From Cyanobacteria bacterium P01_D01_bin.156 (GTDB lineage Bacteria; Cyanobacteriota; Cyanobacteriia; Phormidesmidales; Phormidesmidaceae), in contig JBCCQQ010000004.1 in the NCBI GenBank assembly GCA_039024555.1, positions 64,001-128,000 on the forward strand: a DNA stretch of 64,000 bases, read 5' to 3'. A program made the translations under genes and the position numbers. This document shows positions 5,093 to 60,605 of the stretch, piece by piece (positions within the stretch are counted from its first letter, which is position 1; each line of letters starts with the position of its first letter). Under the pieces are notes generated by a model. The model searched no databases. It was not told where the DNA came from and saw nothing but the letters and a program-made list of their open reading frames with translations.

Positions 5093-6177
5093 GCAGTATT
5101 TTTCGAGACCTTCTCAAGAAGGTTGGTAGCGGTACCCACACATCCCAGGATCTCAGTCGCGAGGAGTCAGCCCTGGCAACTCGTTTAATGTTGGAGCAAA
5201 GGGCAACCCCCGCTCAAATCGGAGCCTTTATGATTGCTCAACGGATTAAACGGCCCACCATTCCAGAACTGGCAGGCATGCTGGACTGCTATGACCAATT
5301 GGGGGGCCGCTTAAAGCTCTCTGGCACTACTCCCCACCCAGCTATCGTGTTGAGTACTCCCTACGATGGACGACTTCGTCATGCACCAGTAACCCCCATC
5401 ACAGCACTGGTTTTAGCAGCAGCAGATATCCCAGTGATACTCCATGGTGGCGATCGCATGCCCACAAAAATGGGGGTGCCGTTAGTAGATGTCTGGCAAG
5501 GGTTGGGAGTGTCATGGCAGACATTGTCCTTAGAACAAACGCAACAGGTCTTTGATTGCACCCAGGTAGGATTTATCTATTTGCCAAAACATTTTCCTGA
5601 AGCCCATCATCTCGTTCCCTATCGAGAACAGATTGGCAAACGACCTACCCTAGCGACTATTGAGCTTATGTGGGCTCCCTGTGATGGGCCCATGCATGTG
5701 GTGAGCAGTTTTGTTCATCCACCGACCGAAGATCGTACTCAGGAAACCTATCAACTACGCCATACCCATAACTACACAACAGTTAAAGGGCTAGAAGGCA
5801 GTTGCGATTTACCTCGAAGTCGCACAGTCATTATTGGGATGGGTAGTAAACCCAAGGACGGGCAACCAACGTTTGAGCGTCTGCTGCTACATCCCAGGGA
5901 CTATGGTTTTGATGGCCCTGACCCGTCGCTGGAGGAAGACTTTCTCAGTACTTTAGAGCCGCTTCTCCATGGAGAAGCCCATCAGTTAACTGATTCCGTT
6001 GTTTGGAACGGGGGCTTTTATCTATGGCGAATGGGTGCTGTACCTAATTTATTGGAAGGATTCGAACAGGCTCGAAACCTTTTGACATCCGGTAAAGTTG
6101 CAGCTAAACGAGAACAGCTACGGAATGTCACTGCCAACGTACACAAACATCAGCTATCTCCTGTTTCAAGTTGTTGA
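5089..6177 (+). CDS. cnaT: Anthranilate phosphoribosyltransferase-like protein CnaT
   Basis: TrpD-like motifs (PAQIGAFMIAQRIK, YDGR, REQIGKRP, FVHPPTE, VKGLEGS); ATGA overlap with ntcB. Confidence 0.8.
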   Translation: MSSIFRDLLKKVGSGTHTSQDLSREESALATRLMLEQRATPAQIGAFMIAQRIKRPTIPELAGMLDCYDQLGGRLKLSGTTPHPAIVLSTPYDGRLRHAPVTPITALVLAAADIPVILHGGDRMPTKMGVPLVDVWQGLGVSWQTLSLEQTQQVFDCTQVGFIYLPKHFPEAHHLVPYREQIGKRPTLATIELMWAPCDGPMHVVSSFVHPPTEDRTQETYQLRHTHNYTTVKGLEGSCDLPRSRTVIIGMGSKPKDGQPTFERLLLHPRDYGFDGPDPSLEEDFLSTLEPLLHGEAHQLTDSVVWNGGFYLWRMGAVPNLLEGFEQARNLLTSGKVAAKREQLRNVTANVHKHQLSPVSSC

Positions 6178-7118: not shown

Positions 7119-8843
7119 CTAAGCCCCGGCGGCAATCTGATTACGTCCCTTATTTTTAGCCTGATACAAGGCCTTATCAGCTTGTTCAACCAGAGACTTA
7201 GATGTCGCCTCCCGAAGACTTTTGGGGGCAATGACACCGAAGCTTAAAGTGACATAATCACTGACATCAGAAGCTACATGAGGAATTTTCAACTTAGCGA
7301 CCTGCCGCTGAATATTACCTAGCACCTCAAAAGCAACAGGAAGTTCTGTATTTGGCAAAACGATGACAAACTCTTCTCCACCGTAGCGAGCAACAAAATC
7401 ACTATGGCGTACACCCTGCTGAAGCGTTTTAGCCACGGAGATTAAACACCTATCGCCTTCCTGATGTCCGTAAGTATCGTTATAGCGTTTGAAATAATCT
7501 ACATCACACAAAACCAGAGCAAGACTCGTCTGTTGCTGAATACAGCGCTGAAGATAGGTATCAAAGGAACGGCGGTTAGCAATGCGGGTTAAGCCATCCA
7601 GAGATGCCAACCCCTGTAGTTGATGGTTTTGACGTAGCAGCAATACGGTCGATGCCAGGGAGATCGACAGTAGTGGGGCTGCAATGGGTAACCATAAGCC
7701 AGCCACAAAAAAAGCATAGACAATAGCTATTAGCCCAGACCCAACGCATGGGATCACTAATAGTAAGGAAAACAAATTTTTGTTCTTATAGACCCCATTG
7801 TGGTCCAGCACTTTATTCACTAACAACGCAGCTAAGCTAGTGGATAAAAGCAACCACCCTGTTTTTATCCAAGGTGAGGCACCATGCAATGGCTGACGTT
7901 CACCCAAGGCACCACCAATCAATTGACTGGCAATATGAGCGTGGATAAATACTCCCGGTAGTCGTTCATCCCAACTCATAGGAGTGTAGAGCAAGTCGTT
8001 AAGGCTAACGGCTGTAGCACCAACTAGAATGATGCGATCGTAAATTTTGTCATAAGATATCTCACCATTGAGTACATCAGAAAATGAAACAGATTCAAAA
8101 AATGTGCGCCCTGCTGGGTAATCAATTAAAATTTGAGTACTATGAGCATCAGCCTTTGCATAGCCACCATCACTAGGGAAAAATCGTCGAAATACGGTGG
8201 CGCCCAGTTGTAAATGAGCTTCATCCAATACTTTTGGAGTTATTTTCTCTTTTTCTAAATAACGTAAAGCTAGCTTAGTACCTAAGCCATATTTACGCTG
8301 CTGATGTTCCTCAGTCTCACATAGTTGTTGTTCTTGGTTACATTGAATAGCCAGTAAGCCTCGGCGAATACGGCCATCCTTATCTGCCACCAGATCGGCT
8401 ATGGCTACCTGGTCATCTCGATCAAGACCAGAGACTGGGGGAACAGCTTCCCCGATAACTTTTTCTACCCCAATCACATTGGAAAAAGTATTAAAAGCAA
8501 TTAGGAGATCATCACGTCCATCACCAACAGGTAAATCACGATAAATATCTATGCCGATTAGCCTAGGGCTGTGCCGCTGTAGCTGCTCTAACAAGCTGGC
8601 CATCTTACTATCAGAAATAGGCCACTCCCCTATTTGTCTGAGATCTTCTTCACCGAGAGTAACAATTAAAAATCGGGAGTCGATCTGATCGGTAGATTTC
8701 CACCGGAGAAAACGATCAAAGGCAAACCATTCTAGGGATTGTAAAATACCTAAGGCACTAATAGAGATTACCAGTGCGGAAATTCCCCATGAAACAGCTA
8801 AAATCCCTCCTAGTTGACGAATTCGCCATCTCAATTGCAACAT
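7119..8843 (-). CDS. CHASE2-sensor diguanylate cyclase
   Basis: TM, CHASE2 (WPISD, IGIDIYRD, DGRIRR, IILVG, PGVFIHA), three TM segments, then GGDEF domain (DGLT, DVDYFKRYND, RxxD I-site RHSD, GGEEF). Confidence 0.9.
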   Translation of the reverse strand: MLQLRWRIRQLGGILAVSWGISALVISISALGILQSLEWFAFDRFLRWKSTDQIDSRFLIVTLGEEDLRQIGEWPISDSKMASLLEQLQRHSPRLIGIDIYRDLPVGDGRDDLLIAFNTFSNVIGVEKVIGEAVPPVSGLDRDDQVAIADLVADKDGRIRRGLLAIQCNQEQQLCETEEHQQRKYGLGTKLALRYLEKEKITPKVLDEAHLQLGATVFRRFFPSDGGYAKADAHSTQILIDYPAGRTFFESVSFSDVLNGEISYDKIYDRIILVGATAVSLNDLLYTPMSWDERLPGVFIHAHIASQLIGGALGERQPLHGASPWIKTGWLLLSTSLAALLVNKVLDHNGVYKNKNLFSLLLVIPCVGSGLIAIVYAFFVAGLWLPIAAPLLSISLASTVLLLRQNHQLQGLASLDGLTRIANRRSFDTYLQRCIQQQTSLALVLCDVDYFKRYNDTYGHQEGDRCLISVAKTLQQGVRHSDFVARYGGEEFVIVLPNTELPVAFEVLGNIQRQVAKLKIPHVASDVSDYVTLSFGVIAPKSLREATSKSLVEQADKALYQAKNKGRNQIAAGA

Positions 8844-8905
8844 GCTTTGGTTCCGATGCCCGAGAGTCTCTCTTATGCTTCCCGTTTAGTTAATGAAGGT
8901 AATGC

Positions 8906-9631
8906 TTATTTGAGAATGGGATTATTAGCTACTTCAGTCAACTCAGTACCTTCTAAAACGTCTTGCCAGGCACTATTTACAGCCTGATCGGTAGGATTCT
9001 GAATGCGTAAATCTGCCAGTAGAGAAATCATGTCATACCAGAGATGGGCCTGACGATACTCCGTAGCTTGTTCGAGGCTGGATTGAGTATTATCAATGTT
9101 AGCTATTGACTGCATCTGAATCCAGCCCTGTAGTGATGGGCTATCGGGTCTCAGGCGTTCATTACACATGAGAATAAGCGACCACTGATAGAGTTCATTT
9201 TCAGCCAGTGCAGGTGCTTCCGCAGGAAGTTGAATACTTACGATCCCGGGAGTACGAGGAAGTTCAATGTAAGTTTCATAGTAGTAATCATTATCGGACT
9301 GAATACTAAACAAAGCTTGGCTAGGAATATCTACAGATGTAGCCACCAAAACCTCAGGATGAGATTTACTGGTCATCCCATACTGAGACGCAGGCATCAG
9401 AGCAGTTAGCTGATCAGCAGAACAACTCCCCCGAGAAGCCCCGCTAACAGTTCCTGCAGGGGCCTGATCATCATCATCAGGCCAAAATGACCAATCACTG
9501 CTGGGAAGAGCATTTACTGCTCCTGCATTTTTGATAACCTCTGCTGCTGCAGGCCCCTGTATGCATAGGCCGACTGCTGTTAATGCCAATACACAGAGGA
9601 TTTTGTAGCGTTGCACCATAAGTCCAGTCAT
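8906..9631 (-). CDS. DUF928 family secreted protein
   Basis: Signal peptide, GASRG-x-C motif, LTALMP, YQWSL, GWIQ, LWYD, W..L...L C-terminus; sits between CHAT and CHASE2 genes as is typical. Confidence 0.85.
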   Translation of the reverse strand: MTGLMVQRYKILCVLALTAVGLCIQGPAAAEVIKNAGAVNALPSSDWSFWPDDDDQAPAGTVSGASRGSCSADQLTALMPASQYGMTSKSHPEVLVATSVDIPSQALFSIQSDNDYYYETYIELPRTPGIVSIQLPAEAPALAENELYQWSLILMCNERLRPDSPSLQGWIQMQSIANIDNTQSSLEQATEYRQAHLWYDMISLLADLRIQNPTDQAVNSAWQDVLEGTELTEVANNPILK

Positions 9632-9806
9632 GTTTTCCTTTGAAGAACGTGAGTGTCGCTGAACAACACTCGTGTTGTAGTTGTTTATACCAAGCTAACA
9701 AACTCAATCCAATTTTCTTTAGGTGTTCTCTCGGAAAAGCATGTGAGGATTATGTGTTGCTCTACCTATCTTCATCTATTGAGTTGAGTATTTTTACGGG
9801 CACAGC

Positions 9807-12380
9807 TTAAGCTAACCAATTACCAATGAGAACAAATGATGCCCAATAAAACGGATGACTATATTTTTTGTTATCAATCAACGAGATTTGAGCCTGACGT
9901 AAAGCTTCTGCCTTTGTAGTTGATGGGCTGACTTCACCTAAAGCTTTGTAAAAGGCATTAATCAGTTCCACAGTCGATTCATCATTAACTGACCACAGCG
10001 TAGCTAGCGTACTACGTGCTCCTGATTTAATAGCCATCCCCGCTAGGCCTAAGGTGGCCCGATCATCTCCCTCAGCGGTTTGACAAGCACTTAAAACCAT
10101 GAGTTCAATCGGATTTTGGGTCTGAATACGCCGGTTTTTTAGTAGTCTATCGAAATCCGTTAGGGAGATGGTTTGGTCCCAAGCTAGCAGAAACGTGTTG
10201 GCCAAGTTAGAGCTAAATTGGCCATGGGTAGCCAGATGCAGAATTGGATAGGGACTGGCTTGGATCTGATCCTCAAAAGCTTTTTTAGTAAAGTCTCTAT
10301 CCAAATAGATTTGGGACTGATTTAGTTTGGATGAGATCTTACTGATTTCTTCCTTAACTCCTGGCAAAGGGGAAAAGCCTTGACGTGATTCACTCAGACC
10401 CAAAATAAGTGCTTCCAAAGGTTTTGGTTTATCAAAGTGGGGACCCATTAAATCTAGCCCCGGCGTTAAAGCGATGCCATAGGTTTCTATCAGATACTGT
10501 TCCCCATCATGTAGAGCCGCCATAGGTATATTGCGCAGCTTTCCATCGAGTACAAAGACTAGAGTCTTAATATCTTGCTGTGTTAACTGATCTGCCGCTG
10601 GTCGAATTAACCAATCATAAAGTTGTTTAGAAAATTGTAAGCGACGACGATCGGGCAGAGCCGGATTAAATGCAACAAAAAATTGGTCCAGAGTTTTATC
10701 GAGCTCAGCCTGGGACAATCGAGTCTGATAGTGGCTCAGAGGTTGACCAGGTAGAGCAAGGATAACTTCTAGACGATCCGGCAGAATGATTGGATAGATA
10801 ACGGCAGCCTGGGGGTCAAGCTGATCAATCTGTTTGGACTGGCTATCAATGCAGGCAGAGCGAAAATAGTTTTCGAGTTCAACAAGCTGCAAATCTTCGA
10901 TCAAATTACGAGCTTGTTTCAAGGCATTTTGATCACCATTGCCAGGTTTGAGTAACAGACTCACTAGCTCACGATAGAGGGGTTCAACTTCATCGCGAAC
11001 ACTGAATTGAAGCTCAGAGTTCGTGGCTAATAGATCAGCCCTCACAGAGGATAAGGTATCAATCGCTTCTGTATAGGTCGAGATTGCACGCTGTTCCTTA
11101 TTTTGCTGGTGATAAACTTTCCCAAGCTGCCACTGCCAGCGGTAGCCAATATCTTTGGCATGGCTGGTCTTAGCCAACCGCATGGCCTTTTGAGTCACCT
11201 GGCGGGCGTTTTCCCATTGCTGTGTAGTAATGTACAACTGCCCCAACTCTCCTAGCGCTAAGGATTCAGCCCGAGCATCATTGAGCTGTTGGGCTTGGTG
11301 GGCACCATCAGCCAGCAACTTTGCCAAATGATGCATGGGAACAGCAGGTATGTCGCTTGGTTTTACATTATTGAACTTACGGACACTCTCAACAAAGTTC
11401 ACTCGCTGATAGATACTAGACCGACTAGGCTGCAACTGAGGCAGTTGCTGACTCAACGCATCCATCAAAGATTGAGCTGCAGACCAATCATTGAGTTCTA
11501 CTAATAAGCTCAACAAATTCAGCTGAGCCGTCATGTGGTCGGCGGTGTTATCCGCCATAGGCATTAGCTGCTCATAAATATCGAGCGCTTCCCCCAACTG
11601 ATTTTGGGTTCTCAAGGTATTGGCAAGCGCCAGTAGCGTTTTAACGGTTTCCCCAGGCTGAGCTAACGTTTGAGTAATCGTTAGACTCTGTTCTAGGAGT
11701 TCCTGAGATTGCTCTAAACTGCCAGTTACCTGCAGTACACTGCCCAGACTACGTAAAGCAGTTGCTTTAAGGACAGAATCAGGCTGACTCTCAACAGAGA
11801 CCACTAGCTCATCTAAAAGGGTTTTAGCCCGACGATAGAACCCCAATGTTTGCATCGCTTGGGCTTGATTTAAGCGACTGCCCAGTTCACCTACAGGGTC
11901 ATCAATTTGCTCATAGACAGAAGTTGCTTCTTGCCAAGTGGCTAGGGCAGCTTCCGGTTGCCCTAGAGCTAGCTGAATACTCCCGTAGGTATTCAGTACC
12001 TGGGCCGTTACTTGGAGCGGCGTTTCAACATCTTGAATTAGCTGCAAACTCTGTTGAATGGTTTGTTCAGCCTTTTGCCATTGCCCTAGTTCCTGATAAG
12101 ACAGGGCTAAATAGCTTAAACTCAGAGCTGTTTCAGTAGATTTATGCTGTTGTCCATAGAGCTGCGTAGCCTGCTGCCAGCGGTGAGTCGCTCGCTGGGA
12201 ATGGCCCACTTCATAGGCTTGATAAGCTTCACCCCAGGATTTATCGGATGATTGCTGAATAGCAAAGCTGGGTCCAGTCGTAATCAACAAACAAATCATC
12301 AGGGAACATATACCCCATTTGAAATGCTGCCGTTTAGTGAGTTTATGTTGTACTTGCCGTAGCCACCGTCGCACCATCAT
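9807..12380 (-). CDS. TPR-repeat CHAT (caspase-like) protease, probably exported
   Basis: N-terminal signal-like segment, multiple TPRs, LHLATHG (His) and VLSACQTA (Cys) dyad, HPFYWASF C-terminus. Confidence 0.9.
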   Translation of the reverse strand: MMVRRWLRQVQHKLTKRQHFKWGICSLMICLLITTGPSFAIQQSSDKSWGEAYQAYEVGHSQRATHRWQQATQLYGQQHKSTETALSLSYLALSYQELGQWQKAEQTIQQSLQLIQDVETPLQVTAQVLNTYGSIQLALGQPEAALATWQEATSVYEQIDDPVGELGSRLNQAQAMQTLGFYRRAKTLLDELVVSVESQPDSVLKATALRSLGSVLQVTGSLEQSQELLEQSLTITQTLAQPGETVKTLLALANTLRTQNQLGEALDIYEQLMPMADNTADHMTAQLNLLSLLVELNDWSAAQSLMDALSQQLPQLQPSRSSIYQRVNFVESVRKFNNVKPSDIPAVPMHHLAKLLADGAHQAQQLNDARAESLALGELGQLYITTQQWENARQVTQKAMRLAKTSHAKDIGYRWQWQLGKVYHQQNKEQRAISTYTEAIDTLSSVRADLLATNSELQFSVRDEVEPLYRELVSLLLKPGNGDQNALKQARNLIEDLQLVELENYFRSACIDSQSKQIDQLDPQAAVIYPIILPDRLEVILALPGQPLSHYQTRLSQAELDKTLDQFFVAFNPALPDRRRLQFSKQLYDWLIRPAADQLTQQDIKTLVFVLDGKLRNIPMAALHDGEQYLIETYGIALTPGLDLMGPHFDKPKPLEALILGLSESRQGFSPLPGVKEEISKISSKLNQSQIYLDRDFTKKAFEDQIQASPYPILHLATHGQFSSNLANTFLLAWDQTISLTDFDRLLKNRRIQTQNPIELMVLSACQTAEGDDRATLGLAGMAIKSGARSTLATLWSVNDESTVELINAFYKALGEVSPSTTKAEALRQAQISLIDNKKYSHPFYWASFVLIGNWLA

Positions 12381-56592: not shown

Positions 56593-56715
56593 TTAGCAGT
56601 AGTCCGCACTGCAGCTCTGAGTCTGTCTGAGCTTATTCCACACGGACAACACCAGGCCCAGAAAAAGTGCTGTGCGCTGTGTTCTCATTGCTTTAATAGA
56701 AGATAGAACAATCAT
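56593..56715 (-). CDS. Putative 40-aa small protein
   Basis: AGGAGG 8 nt before ATG; MIVLSSIKAMRTQRTALFLGLVLSVWNKLRQTQSCSADYC. Confidence 0.45.
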   Translation of the reverse strand: MIVLSSIKAMRTQRTALFLGLVLSVWNKLRQTQSCSADYC

Positions 56716-56906: not shown

Positions 56907-57284
56907 AGCACAGATCCTGAAAGGTGAGAGATTGTTAGAAAAAACATAGCCCTTGACTGAAGGAATCTATCAACTGGCGCTCTGAACAAATCAGCTAGCC
57001 GCGTAATAAAGTCAGCCAAATAACTGATGTTTTATCCAACAATCACAGAATATCGAAGCTGCCCTATCAATACAATTTGCTTTTTTACAGACCTCTGTTA
57101 GCTTTTCTGTAGCATCCTTATAACTTCTCGCTAAATACCCTTTGTAGTTTTGTTTAATACTGCAAGTACTTTAATGACAAAATGCCCTGATCCTTTCAAA
57201 ATCACAATGTCCGTGTGATCTAAATCATTTTGCAATAGCCCCAAATTACGAATCGAGGACTCCAAATGATGGGACCATACTACG

Positions 57285-57332
57285 AAGCCACGAGCGCAGT
57301 AAGTTCATATGAACTTACTGCGCTCGTGGCTT
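57285..57332. terminator. Perfect 48-bp palindrome just downstream of the small peptide gene
   Basis: AAGCCACGAGCGCAGTAAGTTCAT|ATGAACTTACTGCGCTCGTGGCTT. Confidence 0.55.
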
Positions 57333-57355: not shown

Positions 57356-57547
57356 TTAACGACTAGAACTACCCGTTCTACCAGTTGTCCGATTTGGATC
57401 CGGTGGTGGGGGTTCAAAGCCAGCAACAGCAGAGCTACCCATCACAGAAATAATCGGCATCGAAATTAAAACAGCTATGACTAAACGGAGCCATAGTTGC
57501 CTTGTCACTTTTAATGTAGACGTTTTAATCACCTCCTTTATTAACAT
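57356..57547 (-). CDS. Small secreted peptide precursor (signal peptide plus ~21-aa mature peptide)
   Basis: Basic n-region, hydrophobic h-region, AVA cleavage motif, then GFEPPPPDPNRTTGRTGSSSR-stop; start uncertain (57556, 57547 or later). Confidence 0.7.
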   Translation of the reverse strand: MLIKEVIKTSTLKVTRQLWLRLVIAVLISMPIISVMGSSAVAGFEPPPPDPNRTTGRTGSSSR

Positions 57548-57677
57548 AAGTGACACCTGTAAGTCCCCATATAATGTCGTAGAGTCAAGGGGTAAAGTTT
57601 AGAAACCATAGCTCGTTTACCTTAATCTTTATATGCCCAGTACAGCTGCAAAATAGAAGCTTAAAAGCAGCTTTTTA

Positions 57678-59639
57678 TTACGTCGATAAGGGAAACGTCA
57701 ACTGACAGAAAAATCCTTTTGGCTTGTTTGGTCGCCGTACAAACGTCCCCTTCGTTAGCTTTTCAATTTCTTGACCAATGCGTGTACCTTCACCGCTGCC
57801 AGCTTCATGCATATCCACTCCAGGGCCATTGTCAGCCACCGTTATCTCATAGTGTTCATCTTTGTGTTTTCCAGTCACCACTAGCTGTGTAGCTCCAACG
57901 GCGTGTTTGCCAACGTTCCCTAGGGCTTCCTCCACAAATCGACATAGCTTACGCTTAACTTCAACGTTTAAGATGTCTGATTCGAGCGGATCAAAAGAAA
58001 TAATTGTGAATTTAAGGCTTGAAAAGCCCAACAAGGGCCTTGATAGCATGGCATCGTACACCTCCTGAAAAAGTTCGTGTAGAGGAATATCTAAGTCAAA
58101 CTTGGTGCCCGCATAGCTAACATCTAGGCTATTTTTTCGAGCCACTACATCCTCCTTGATCGAATCCCCAATGTATCGAATCTCTCGATTGAGATCTTCT
58201 AGCCCTAGGCAGATATCCGGTATATTAATCGTTTCGTCACGGGTGCGTCTAAGCAAGTTGGCCAGAGTTTGAAGCGGCCCATTGTGAATGGAGTCAAATA
58301 CGTTTTCAATCGTTTTTTGCCGTGCAAAGGCTAACTTTTCAGAAACGTGGCGTTCCTTTTCTAGAGCCAGATTACGCTGTTCAATTAGCTTGGCCCAGCG
58401 GCGTTCGTTTTGAGCATAGTTGATATAGATCAAACCATTGGCCGTTATAGAGACCAATGTTACGGCCAGCGGTAACCATAGGCCAACTTGCAACAGTAAA
58501 ATATAGCTAACAACAATGCTTGAACCAGCAATTAGTGATAATCGGACAAAACCGCTAATCACCCCCTGAGAAAAGCGACTGGCGATAATACTGAGAATTG
58601 AAAAAGAGATTAAGAATATTAGTTGAGCAATTCCACTAGTCCAAAGTAACGGTTGTTGCTTTTCGACTGCCTTAATAATTTGACTGATCGTGTAGGCTTG
58701 AATTTCTGCGCCACTGGCCAGCTGCTTATTATTTACAACACGATTAAAAACGGTTAGCGGTATTTGGTTTCCTTGAAGCGGATCTACCAAACTAACAATG
58801 ACAATTTTATCTTTAATTCGCTCGTCTTCTTGTCTTTGGGACGTTAGTAAATCTGTTCTACCGATTAGGTTAAAAGGTTTAACTTGCCCCCGATAGTTAA
58901 TCAAAGCCTGAATATCGGATTCATCATTGTTGACATATCCGTAGGCAGATTTAATCCTAGGAATCTCAACCGGTCCGAATCGCATTGCGAGCTCATCCTG
59001 AATACCATTCTCTAGCTCAAGATCTTGATTGCTGAAGCGCTCACTTTTGAAATAGCTTTGAATAATTTGGATAGCAAAAGACGTCTCAAATTCATCATCA
59101 GTGTTATAAGAACCTAACAAAGCTCGACGAACTGTACCATCACGATCAAGCGACAGGTCGTTAAACCCAACTTGTTGATTGAGTTGAGTTTGAGAGAGTT
59201 TTGGCAACGGTTCTACGGGATTAGAAAGAATCCGCTCTACCAAAATTAAATTAGAATTCCTTCTAATAAGCGGCAACAGAGTTTTATCTAGGTCCCCTGT
59301 AATTCGATGAGATAAAATATCGATACCGACAACAGCCGGCTCGTTTTCGAAGATATTCTCTAGAATCTCAGTCAACTCCGCTGCATCAATGGTATCGATG
59401 GTCTCATCTGTATCGTTAGTCTCCTCAGTAGATAGAGAATCAATTCCAACAATTGTGATCGGCTTATCACCAGTTTGAAACGATAGCTGAGTCGCCAGCA
59501 ACCGGTCCAAGGCCATGAGTTCAACAACCTGGAATGCCCCGAGAGAACGTGCACCTATCACAGAAGCCACGATACCCAGACCCCAAAGACCAGTTTTGAG
59601 TCGCTCTAAAGACTTCTCCCAACGGCTTTGGTCTTCCAT
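57678..59639 (-). CDS. CHASE2-sensor histidine kinase (HisKA_3-like)
   Basis: TM, CHASE2 (VVGIDI, VGFNDL..D.DG.VRR, LINYRG, SGAEIQA), three TM segments; H-box DSIHNGPLQ, N-box EEALGNVGKHA, DNGPG, GEGT. Confidence 0.9.
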   Translation of the reverse strand: MEDQSRWEKSLERLKTGLWGLGIVASVIGARSLGAFQVVELMALDRLLATQLSFQTGDKPITIVGIDSLSTEETNDTDETIDTIDAAELTEILENIFENEPAVVGIDILSHRITGDLDKTLLPLIRRNSNLILVERILSNPVEPLPKLSQTQLNQQVGFNDLSLDRDGTVRRALLGSYNTDDEFETSFAIQIIQSYFKSERFSNQDLELENGIQDELAMRFGPVEIPRIKSAYGYVNNDESDIQALINYRGQVKPFNLIGRTDLLTSQRQEDERIKDKIVIVSLVDPLQGNQIPLTVFNRVVNNKQLASGAEIQAYTISQIIKAVEKQQPLLWTSGIAQLIFLISFSILSIIASRFSQGVISGFVRLSLIAGSSIVVSYILLLQVGLWLPLAVTLVSITANGLIYINYAQNERRWAKLIEQRNLALEKERHVSEKLAFARQKTIENVFDSIHNGPLQTLANLLRRTRDETINIPDICLGLEDLNREIRYIGDSIKEDVVARKNSLDVSYAGTKFDLDIPLHELFQEVYDAMLSRPLLGFSSLKFTIISFDPLESDILNVEVKRKLCRFVEEALGNVGKHAVGATQLVVTGKHKDEHYEITVADNGPGVDMHEAGSGEGTRIGQEIEKLTKGTFVRRPNKPKGFFCQLTFPLST

Positions 59640-60328
59640 TAGTCCAATAGACCCCGCTCGCGGGCACGGATTTCAGTCAGACTGCGTAGATTTTTGCCTT
59701 CCTTTTTGTCTAGTTCAGGATCTATTTCTAGAACATCGTAGAGTTTGTTCCAGTAGTGGCGAATAGTACTAGGCTGCACATTCAATTCTTGAGCAATAGC
59801 CTTGTCCTGCAATCCTTCGTAAAATGCCAGGGTCAGGACTTGAAGCCATTCAGGTTTGAGTTCAATTCCTGCCTGAAGAGCTTTAATACCTCGGGTATGG
59901 CTAAAGCCTTTGAGGGCACCATCGATACGCTGAAAAATATCCTGGCTCGACATGCTCTTGTCAACAATCGTAAATCCGCCCTGGTGGCTATCAATTTCTG
60001 AACGCACGCGCACCAGTGCCTTAATGTAGGTGCTTTGAATGGCAATATTTTGCTCAGGGTAATTTTTCATTACCTGTCTGAGCAACTCAATGCCTGTTTC
60101 CACTTTGGCATCTTCTTGATATGCCTCAGGTATGGACAGGTCTAAGATTGCTAAATCAAGGTTGTAAGTTGCTAAATGTTCTAACGCTTCCTGAGCAGTC
60201 TTTGCAGTTACAAGATCGTAGGTGGGATAATGCTGTCGCAGGATGTCGATGGTACCGCTCAGTACAACTTGATGATCATCGACAATTAGAATTTTGCCGG
60301 TAGGTGCTTCACTAGATGAGGGGCCCAT
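59639..60328 (-). CDS. NarL/LuxR-type response regulator
   Basis: ILIVDDH, LDLSIP (phospho-Asp), C-terminal HTH GLQDKAIAQELNV..STIRHY; TAATG overlap with the kinase. Confidence 0.92.
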   Translation of the reverse strand: MGPSSSEAPTGKILIVDDHQVVLSGTIDILRQHYPTYDLVTAKTAQEALEHLATYNLDLAILDLSIPEAYQEDAKVETGIELLRQVMKNYPEQNIAIQSTYIKALVRVRSEIDSHQGGFTIVDKSMSSQDIFQRIDGALKGFSHTRGIKALQAGIELKPEWLQVLTLAFYEGLQDKAIAQELNVQPSTIRHYWNKLYDVLEIDPELDKKEGKNLRSLTEIRARERGLLD

Positions 60329-60554: not shown

Positions 60555-60605
60555 AAAAAAATTGCCAGGCCACTTTGTAGTTTTCTACAAAGTGGCCTGG
60601 CAATT
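60555..60605 (-). terminator. Strong terminator
   Basis: 21-bp perfect stem AATTGCCAGGCCACTTTGTAG, 4-nt loop, T7 run on the minus strand. Confidence 0.8.

Follow-up and report, generated by a model that had tools for sequence, protein, structure and literature searches.

A conserved small gene beside a CHASE2 sensor kinase in marine cyanobacteria may encode the peptide ligand of that kinase

What signal does a CHASE2 sensor perceive? The domain was defined in 2003, and its ligands are still called unknown in a passage of a 2023 paper (PMC10581220). The question is raised by a locus of Cyanobacteria bacterium P01_D01_bin.156, in which a NarL-like response regulator gene, a gene for a CHASE2 sensor histidine kinase and a small open reading frame (ORF) lie in this order on the minus strand of a 64-kb stretch of DNA (contig JBCCQQ010000004.1, positions 64,001 to 128,000), which was analyzed at its full length and is referred to below as the window. 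A preliminary description of the window had picked out these three co-oriented genes, an arrangement that we confirmed, and had proposed that the small ORF specifies an extracellular peptide recognized by the adjacent kinase. Our results showed that the small ORF is conserved and inherited together with one clade of CHASE2 kinases, and that its product varies together with their sensor domain. On these sequence comparisons, the proposition that the adjacent CHASE2 kinase recognizes the predicted 21-residue peptide as its cognate ligand has about as much for it as against it.

The small ORF is a real conserved gene under purifying selection. It occupies positions 57356-57556 (minus strand; 66 amino acids if read from a GTG, 63 from an ATG), about 140 nucleotides (nt) past the kinase gene, and when small ORFs were sought beside orthologous CHASE2 kinases, all 18 loci of the genus (marine Leptolyngbya/Leptothoe/Adonisia) had it. 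The alignment of the 18 loci contains only indels that are multiples of three and has a common stop column, and the ratio of nonsynonymous to synonymous substitution rates (dN/dS) was 0.31 at the median (147 usable of 153 pairs) and 0.04, 0.10 and 0.13 in the three closest pairs. The precursor has a predicted Sec signal peptide of 34 residues (57422-57523, minus), assigned by eye from its basic n-region, hydrophobic core and A-x-A site, followed by a predicted mature peptide of 21 residues (57359-57421, minus) that is rich in Pro, Gly, Ser and Thr, free of Cys and terminated by Arg. The AVA|G cleavage site and 21-residue tail had been described before, and they read as described; the alanines at positions -3 and -1 (A32 and A34) are invariant in 18/18 loci and in all 21 peptides collected. 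The mature peptides retain a [FY]-x-P opening and an Asp, none of the 18 contains Cys, and the C-terminal residue is Arg in 14/18 loci.

The preliminary description had given the ORF about 63 residues; the ORF itself stood, and its start was moved by the 18-locus comparison. A Shine-Dalgarno sequence, AGGAGGTGA (57529-57537, minus), is identical in 18/18 loci, and the codon 8 nt after its GGAGG (57521-57523 in the window) is ACG in 14, ATG in two and ATA in one. The remaining locus has TTG one codon later, and its shifted frame puts the GTG within the Shine-Dalgarno sequence out of frame. Because four of the 18 loci carry an in-frame stop immediately 5' of the Shine-Dalgarno sequence, the upstream GTG and ATG of the window are not the conserved start. 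A single 55-residue database protein, present on 13 contigs, opens with Met at exactly the proposed position, and it is from this protein together with the codon alignment that we infer a precursor of 55 residues that usually starts at a near-cognate codon. The conserved core therefore runs from 57523 to 57356 (minus; precursor plus stop), and the ACG that lies 8 nt past a perfect nine-base Shine-Dalgarno sequence is likely its conserved near-cognate start codon. Three points count against this account of the gene and its product: ACG would be unusual as a start codon, dS is saturated (above 2), and the four loci without a C-terminal Arg end in Ser, His, Tyr and Tyr.

Searches of the genome and of wider collections suggested that the ORF is distinctive. 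Only 3 of 80,397 small ORFs of the genome match a loose pattern consisting of a hydrophobic stretch, [FYW]xP and a Gly/Ser/Thr-rich end with Arg or Lys, and of these three only the small ORF of the cassette lies near a CHASE2 gene, and the arrangement is therefore beyond chance. The genome holds no paralogue of the peptide, the ORF matched no Pfam family, a protein atlas comparison gave no lead (best score 0.82), and RNAalifold found no consensus structure pairing around the Shine-Dalgarno sequence.

Besides the genome of the window, 17 genomes of the genus have an orthologous kinase (53-71% identity). Members of this genus, judged by the related loci, include Leptolyngbya sp. PCC 7375, Heron Island J, Adonisia turfae, Leptothoe kymatousa and marine metagenome-assembled genomes; we take these organisms to be filamentous and heterocyst-free. 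Kinase matches at E<=1e-40 were obtained in 19 of 21 genus genomes, two of which had paralogues only. In the two genomes that gave no match (G016 and G012) the contigs end beside the HlyD gene, and the G016 contig end bears the upstream palindrome described below and the start of the regulator gene; thus, absence of the cassette from these genomes is not demonstrated. Two other genera of the family each have a homologous kinase gene that is directly followed by a peptide ORF (loci L036 and L060). In a kinase tree, rooted at the midpoint only and with L036 on a long branch, the 20 peptide-linked kinases (18 orthologues plus these two) form one side of a branch with support 100/99, and six kinases followed by a full-length protein of the DUF928 family fall on the other side. 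The small ORF thus accompanies the CHASE2 kinase in 20/20 kinases of one clade. A profile built from the 21 peptides and run against 1.84 billion proteins returned 12 matches, one of which was repeat junk; the other 11 are 47-122 residues long, the match extends to their C-termini, and nine of them end in Arg. No long form of the peptide was found by this profile search.

We then compared rates of change across the cassette neighbourhood, which is syntenic in 17 named loci. Mean pairwise identity was 0.90 for the ABC1 kinase, 0.88 for the MBL-fold protein, 0.88 for LysR, 0.87 for the rhomboid protein and 0.82 for HlyD, which are the neighbours of the cassette, and 0.92 for the regulator (17 orthologues). 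Within the kinase it fell from 0.79 in the cytoplasmic part to 0.63 in the membrane part and 0.56 in the CHASE2 domain, and it was 0.46 for the mature peptide (15 loci). The peptide and the sensor domain of the kinase are the fastest-evolving parts of this conserved neighbourhood, in which one hypothetical protein is also low (0.56). Peptide distance correlated with CHASE2 distance when the flanks were held constant (partial Mantel r 0.69; 0/2000 permutations as high) and when the distance of the kinase cytoplasmic part was held constant (r 0.51; 0/2000).

The peptide/sensor block is also discordant with its flanks, as in pherotype loci. A tree of the concatenated flanks paired the window with locus L082 of genome G013 with support 100, and the peptide and CHASE2 domain of that locus are the most different from those of the window. 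The CHASE2 tree grouped the window with three loci of the same peptide type (L069, L070 and L084; support 99), and approximately unbiased (AU) tests rejected alternative groupings (p 9e-5, 0.001 and 2e-72). A DNA tree of SecA plus UvrC, built afterwards, again paired the genome of the window with G013 and rejected a clade made up of the loci that share its peptide type (log-likelihood difference 392, p-AU 2e-4); both genes lie inside the same window, so that this tree is not a genome-wide species tree. Co-variation and discordance of this kind are as expected for what a ligand-receptor pair would give. Other considerations detract from that argument. Rapid evolution is common in sensor domains relative to catalytic ones, and genes that are linked have a common genealogy; co-variation is therefore no proof of contact. 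The groups submitted to the AU tests were chosen after the trees had been seen, and no sign of positive selection was found on CHASE2 (dN/dS 0.13, a value that is not informative because dS is saturated).

Conservation, co-inheritance and co-variation would suit any direct partner of the sensor, including a small periplasmic or membrane-tethered modulator that does not diffuse but remains with the cell that makes it and adjusts or inhibits the kinase, much as MgrB acts on PhoQ. A start codon as weak as ACG, preceded by a perfect Shine-Dalgarno sequence, would likewise suit a regulator made at a low level. However, the invariance of A-x-A in 21/21 peptides favours cleavage, which would leave no membrane anchor, and allele discordance with the flanks is a usual trait of recognition systems that would be hard to account for in a purely internal modulator. 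We therefore regard a modulator of this type as unlikely, though worth serious consideration, and return to the peptide as a ligand.

The genome has 12 DUF928 genes above the cut-off, 18 CHASE2 matches and 43 CHAT matches; a DUF928 gene lies within 6 kb of 9/18 CHASE2 matches, often with a CHAT protease gene, and the cassette locus itself has neither. In the literature searched, DUF928 is mentioned in one paper, in passing (PMC5587647). Beside sister kinases (33-38% identity), a full-length DUF928 gene comes next in 6/11 loci; none was seen in the other five, three of which have short flanks. The small ORF thus occupies the place that is held by full-length DUF928 beside these sister kinases. 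The DUF928 proteins of the genome carry, after their signal peptide, a motif of the form aromatic-x-Pro-Pro ... Gly-Gly-x-Ser/Thr-Arg. Its likeness to the peptide is visible by eye, and a six-residue run is common to the peptide and a DUF928 protein of the genus. In an AlphaFold model of the DUF928 protein of a sister cassette (mean predicted local distance difference test score, pLDDT, 77.8), the first 85 residues or so, among them the motif, are a low-confidence coil (pLDDT of the motif 44-65), and residues 89-270 fold as a beta-sandwich with helices. The best structural match to this model was the C-terminal domain of MtxA (Z 8.7, root-mean-square deviation 3.9, 142 aligned residues), the only chain with Z of at least 8 among 48,161. 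In magnetotactic bacteria, as an excerpt of the report on that structure describes (PDB 4Z29; PMC4439547), the gene after mtxA encodes a cyclase that has a CHASE2 domain. Searches of PDB sequences with the DUF928 profile and with the kinase profile gave 0 matches each.

From the sister-locus position, the motif likeness and the coil at the tip of the model, the peptide resembles a detachable DUF928 tip, and it looks like an old, retained N-terminal tip of a DUF928 protein whose body was lost. The two share their place beside a CHASE2 sensor gene, and the signal peptide of the small ORF is followed by what resembles the aromatic-x-Pro ... Gly/Ser/Thr-Arg motif that comes after the signal peptide of DUF928; unlike DUF928, the peptide has no folded domain at all and ends at or near the Arg of the motif. 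Profile methods give this likeness weak statistics. Alignment of the peptide and DUF928 motif profiles with hhalign found the right place only weakly (probability 27.6%, E 6.5e-4, 11 columns), a hidden Markov model of the motif from the DUF928 proteins of the genome did not list the small ORF even at E<=1000, and the peptide profile reached no DUF928 protein among the 1.84 billion proteins.

The preliminary description had also named the finding that would have undone its proposal, a recently truncated DUF928 gene with the remainder downstream, and no such remainder is present. A six-frame search of the cassette region of the window found no DUF928 (PF06051) at E<=10, and none was found 3' of the small ORF in 16/16 spacers (best E 1.4). 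These negatives, together with the intact frame in 18/18 loci and the low dN/dS of the close pairs (0.04-0.13), make it very improbable that the ORF is a decaying DUF928 remnant or a non-coding leader with no function of its own, even if such an origin would fit both its position where sister cassettes carry full-length DUF928 and the lack, in 15/18 loci, of a canonical codon at the conserved start position.

If the peptide is a free copy of a DUF928 tip, it might act on partners other than its neighbour, either competing for the other 17 CHASE2 sensors or acting as their decoy, or serving as a substrate or inhibitor of CHAT proteases. The abundance of CHASE2, DUF928 and CHAT genes in the genome, often as trios, would leave room for this, as would a second free-standing family of tip-like peptides (see below) that adjoins no CHASE2 gene. 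However, strict adjacency to one kinase clade in 20/20 cases, co-variation with the sensor of that very kinase and a conserved neighbourhood that contains no CHAT gene point away from such partners, and we consider this possibility quite doubtful compared with action on the neighbouring kinase.

Several other genes with the tip motif were observed. One DUF928 protein (contig C8:125908-126930, plus strand; L001:1081-2094) carries five tandem copies of the motif, all of which end in G-G-A-S-R; its gene lies between CHAT and CHASE2 genes, and it resembles a multi-copy precursor. The second free-standing family (contig C69:17286-17462, plus strand; L130:487-663, with relatives L133-L144) is present in 13/22 genus genomes and has a signal peptide, a variable spacer and a near-invariant C-terminus, ...P-Q-R-R-L-S-G-G-T-R, with the stop right after the Arg in 11/13. 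This C-terminus corresponds to one form of the DUF928 N-terminal motif, P-G-R-R-L-G-G-G-T-R, and no CHASE2 gene adjoins the family member of this genome. A 102-codon frame directly after a CHAT-DUF928 pair (contig C50:16907-17212, minus strand) has a hydrophobic N-terminus and the tip motif followed by 14 residues. The window itself holds a usual CHAT, DUF928 and CHASE2 trio at 7119-12380 (minus strand; genome C4:71827-74634).

A likeness to cyanobacterial PatX had been pointed out as well. PatX, PatS and HetN come from small exported precursors in which a short peptide at the C-terminus is the active part (sections of PMC7761841 and PMC12756182), and export and processing are described for PatX (in part of PMC12756182). 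The precursor encoded by the small ORF of the cassette is likewise small and predicted to be exported, it ends in a short peptide, and its host is a filamentous cyanobacterium. Its signal peptide, Pro-rich stretch and Arg-ending tail, and the presence of hetR in the genome (contig C88:6267-6713), would be in keeping with an exported HetR inhibitor of the PatX type. However, RG[ST]GR occurs in 0/21 peptides, and hetR is directly preceded by a separate patX-like ORF (about 5450-5695, plus strand), which encodes a signal peptide and RGSGR four times in tandem. The receptor also differs, PatX acting on cytoplasmic HetR and the cassette peptide being proposed to act on periplasmic CHASE2. The PatX likeness was therefore given up, and an inhibitor of HetR appears hardly credible here.

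The cassette is closer in layout to Bacillus ComQXPA, in which a peptide precursor gene also adjoins genes for a membrane kinase and a NarL-class regulator. There, as stated in a portion of PMC6334282, the peptide and the sensor part of the kinase are poorly conserved, the regulator is conserved and allele groups do not track the flanks; here, too, the peptide (0.46) and CHASE2 domain (0.56) are polymorphic, the regulator (0.92) is conserved and the trees are discordant. Unlike ComQXPA, the cassette genes include no ComQ-like prenyl transferase, and a Sec signal peptide replaces ComQ-dependent processing. Moreover, the sensor is a periplasmic CHASE2 domain rather than the multi-helix sensor of ComP, the order is regulator-kinase-peptide, and the host is a Gram-negative cyanobacterium. 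With no modifying enzyme and with CHASE2 in place of the ComP sensor, the membership in ComX-type systems that had been suggested does not hold. Agr signalling uses a Cys-containing AgrD-like precursor and an AgrB-like processing protein. The cassette differs in that Cys occurs in 0/18 mature peptides and that it has no AgrB-like extra gene. A protein-nature signal for CHASE2 has a parallel in Sinorhizobium meliloti, where the CHASE2 cyclases CyaD1, CyaD2 and CyaK respond to one together with NsrA (as set out in part of PMC13001267). According to the same part of that source, the signal is a plant ribosomal protein perceived via an outer-membrane protein and the output is cyclic AMP, whereas a self-encoded peptide and a two-component output are proposed here. 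Thus, of the earlier proposal that the peptide is the cognate CHASE2 ligand, the conserved gene, the co-inheritance in 20/20 kinases and the co-variation were borne out, and the PatX and ComX parallels were not.

The other two products of the cassette were assigned by domain searches. The kinase gene (57678-59639, minus) encodes a CHASE2 domain (PF05226; E 1e-34, 120.7 bits against a cut-off of 26.3, residues 24-350) and a HATPase_c domain (E 2.4e-6, 28.4 bits against 26.4). Its sensor spans about residues 36-335 and is followed by three further membrane helices, a block around His452 and HATPase_c. The His452 block, F-D-S-I-H-N-G-P-L-Q-T-L-A, is invariant in 18/18 kinase orthologues. The CHASE2 part of the original assignment is therefore sound, and its HisKA_3 part was not recovered, as HisKA_3 gave no match even at E<=10, though the NCBIfam matches, weak and far under the cut-off, are to UhpB, NarX and NarQ. 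The regulator gene (59639-60328, minus) encodes a receiver domain (Response_reg, 44.3 bits, above the cut-off) and a NarL/LuxR-like helix-turn-helix recognized only below the cut-off: the LuxR/GerE-type domain scored 16.3 bits against a cut-off of 23.5, Sigma70_r4 was also below its cut-off, and full-length NCBIfam matches of the NarL/FixJ class are weak and all far under cut-off. The stop codon of the regulator gene (59641-59639) and the ATG of the kinase gene (59639-59637) share 1 nt, which is the TAATG coupling reported before and is read straight from the sequence. The ORFs of the window and Pfam searches showed no additional gene within the cassette.

About 245 nt upstream of the regulator ATG lies a perfect 20-bp palindrome, CTTTGTAG-N4-CTACAAAG (60573-60592, no strand; 0 mismatches), a candidate operator and the sole exact copy in the genome. 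It is recognisable in 17/17 aligned upstream regions and exact in 10/17, with AAAA or TTTT at the centre, and it persists in loci that have a different gene upstream. Exact sites in the genus number 22, in 15/22 genomes, and a reversed control gave 0; 16 are at the cassette and six elsewhere. A second copy lies 3' of the terminator of the peptide gene in 15/16 relatives, and downstream of it in relatives is a second conserved, unannotated small ORF (56593-56715 in the window, minus; 40 amino acids, C-terminal C-x-A-D-[CY]-C). Its ATG and GGAG are aligned in 16/16 spacers, a sequence pattern recovered its translation in 12/16, and it has only two clusters in a collection of 5.8 billion proteins. 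From the distribution of the palindrome we infer that the regulator binds it, and the second small ORF may be the output gene of the cassette, a link suggested by its position. Two features of the window are unfavourable to an operator: its palindrome is the core of a longer terminator-like hairpin, and its second copy is degenerate.

Altogether, these data can be arranged into a scheme in which the precursor would be exported by Sec and cut after A-x-A, and the peptide of roughly 21 residues so released would likely bind the CHASE2 domain of the kinase as its cognate signal. The kinase would then phosphorylate the NarL-like regulator, which would bind the 20-bp palindrome before its own operon, giving positive feedback, and in relatives also the second copy before the second small ORF. 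The peptide would descend from the disordered N-terminal motif of DUF928, the usual neighbour of CHASE2 sensors, the globular domain having presumably been lost before the genera of the family split. Because the hosts are presumed to be filamentous, a peptide in the periplasm could signal within one filament or from one filament to another, and allele-specific peptide/sensor pairs would serve as recognition groups. A fuller version, a peptide "dialect" system in which an unmodified, ribosomally made and Sec-exported 21-mer is the specific ligand of the CHASE2 kinase, matched peptide and receptor alleles are exchanged or kept across species and DUF928 tips are general CHASE2 ligands, is on the whole rather improbable.

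If the ligand reading is true, it would provide a ligand for a CHASE2 sensor, show two-component signalling by a linear peptide in a Gram-negative phototroph, and offer naturally occurring variants of specificity with which to map the binding site. The usual neighbour of CHASE2 would have been pared to about 21 residues and kept through the life of a cyanobacterial family. A vague gene association also becomes an experiment, for which a synthetic peptide, the purified sensor domain and a culturable strain suffice.

Two minor features of the non-coding DNA remain to be described. The six exact 20-bp sites outside the cassette are at G003:C145, G015:C6, G020:C2:26052, G021:C32:2712767, G016:C9 and G001:C617; two pairs of them are homologous loci just upstream of secreted-protein genes and are possible further targets. 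After the stop codon of the small ORF, the window has the perfect 48-bp palindrome that had been described as closing it (57285-57332, no strand; 24+24 nt, 100% complementary; folding energy -48.4 kcal/mol, z -11), with no U-run on the coding strand. A repeat element was considered and rejected, since the palindrome is single copy in the 6.6-Mb genome, and Rfam gave only sub-threshold, microRNA-like matches (best 29.5 bits against 59). The palindrome is not conserved; relatives have a shorter hairpin and a U-run at the equivalent place. Together with its flanks (57140-57332) it resembles an insertion, and the sequence of the relatives' terminator hairpin is displaced about 110 nt further in the window, where its stem and U-run have been lost.

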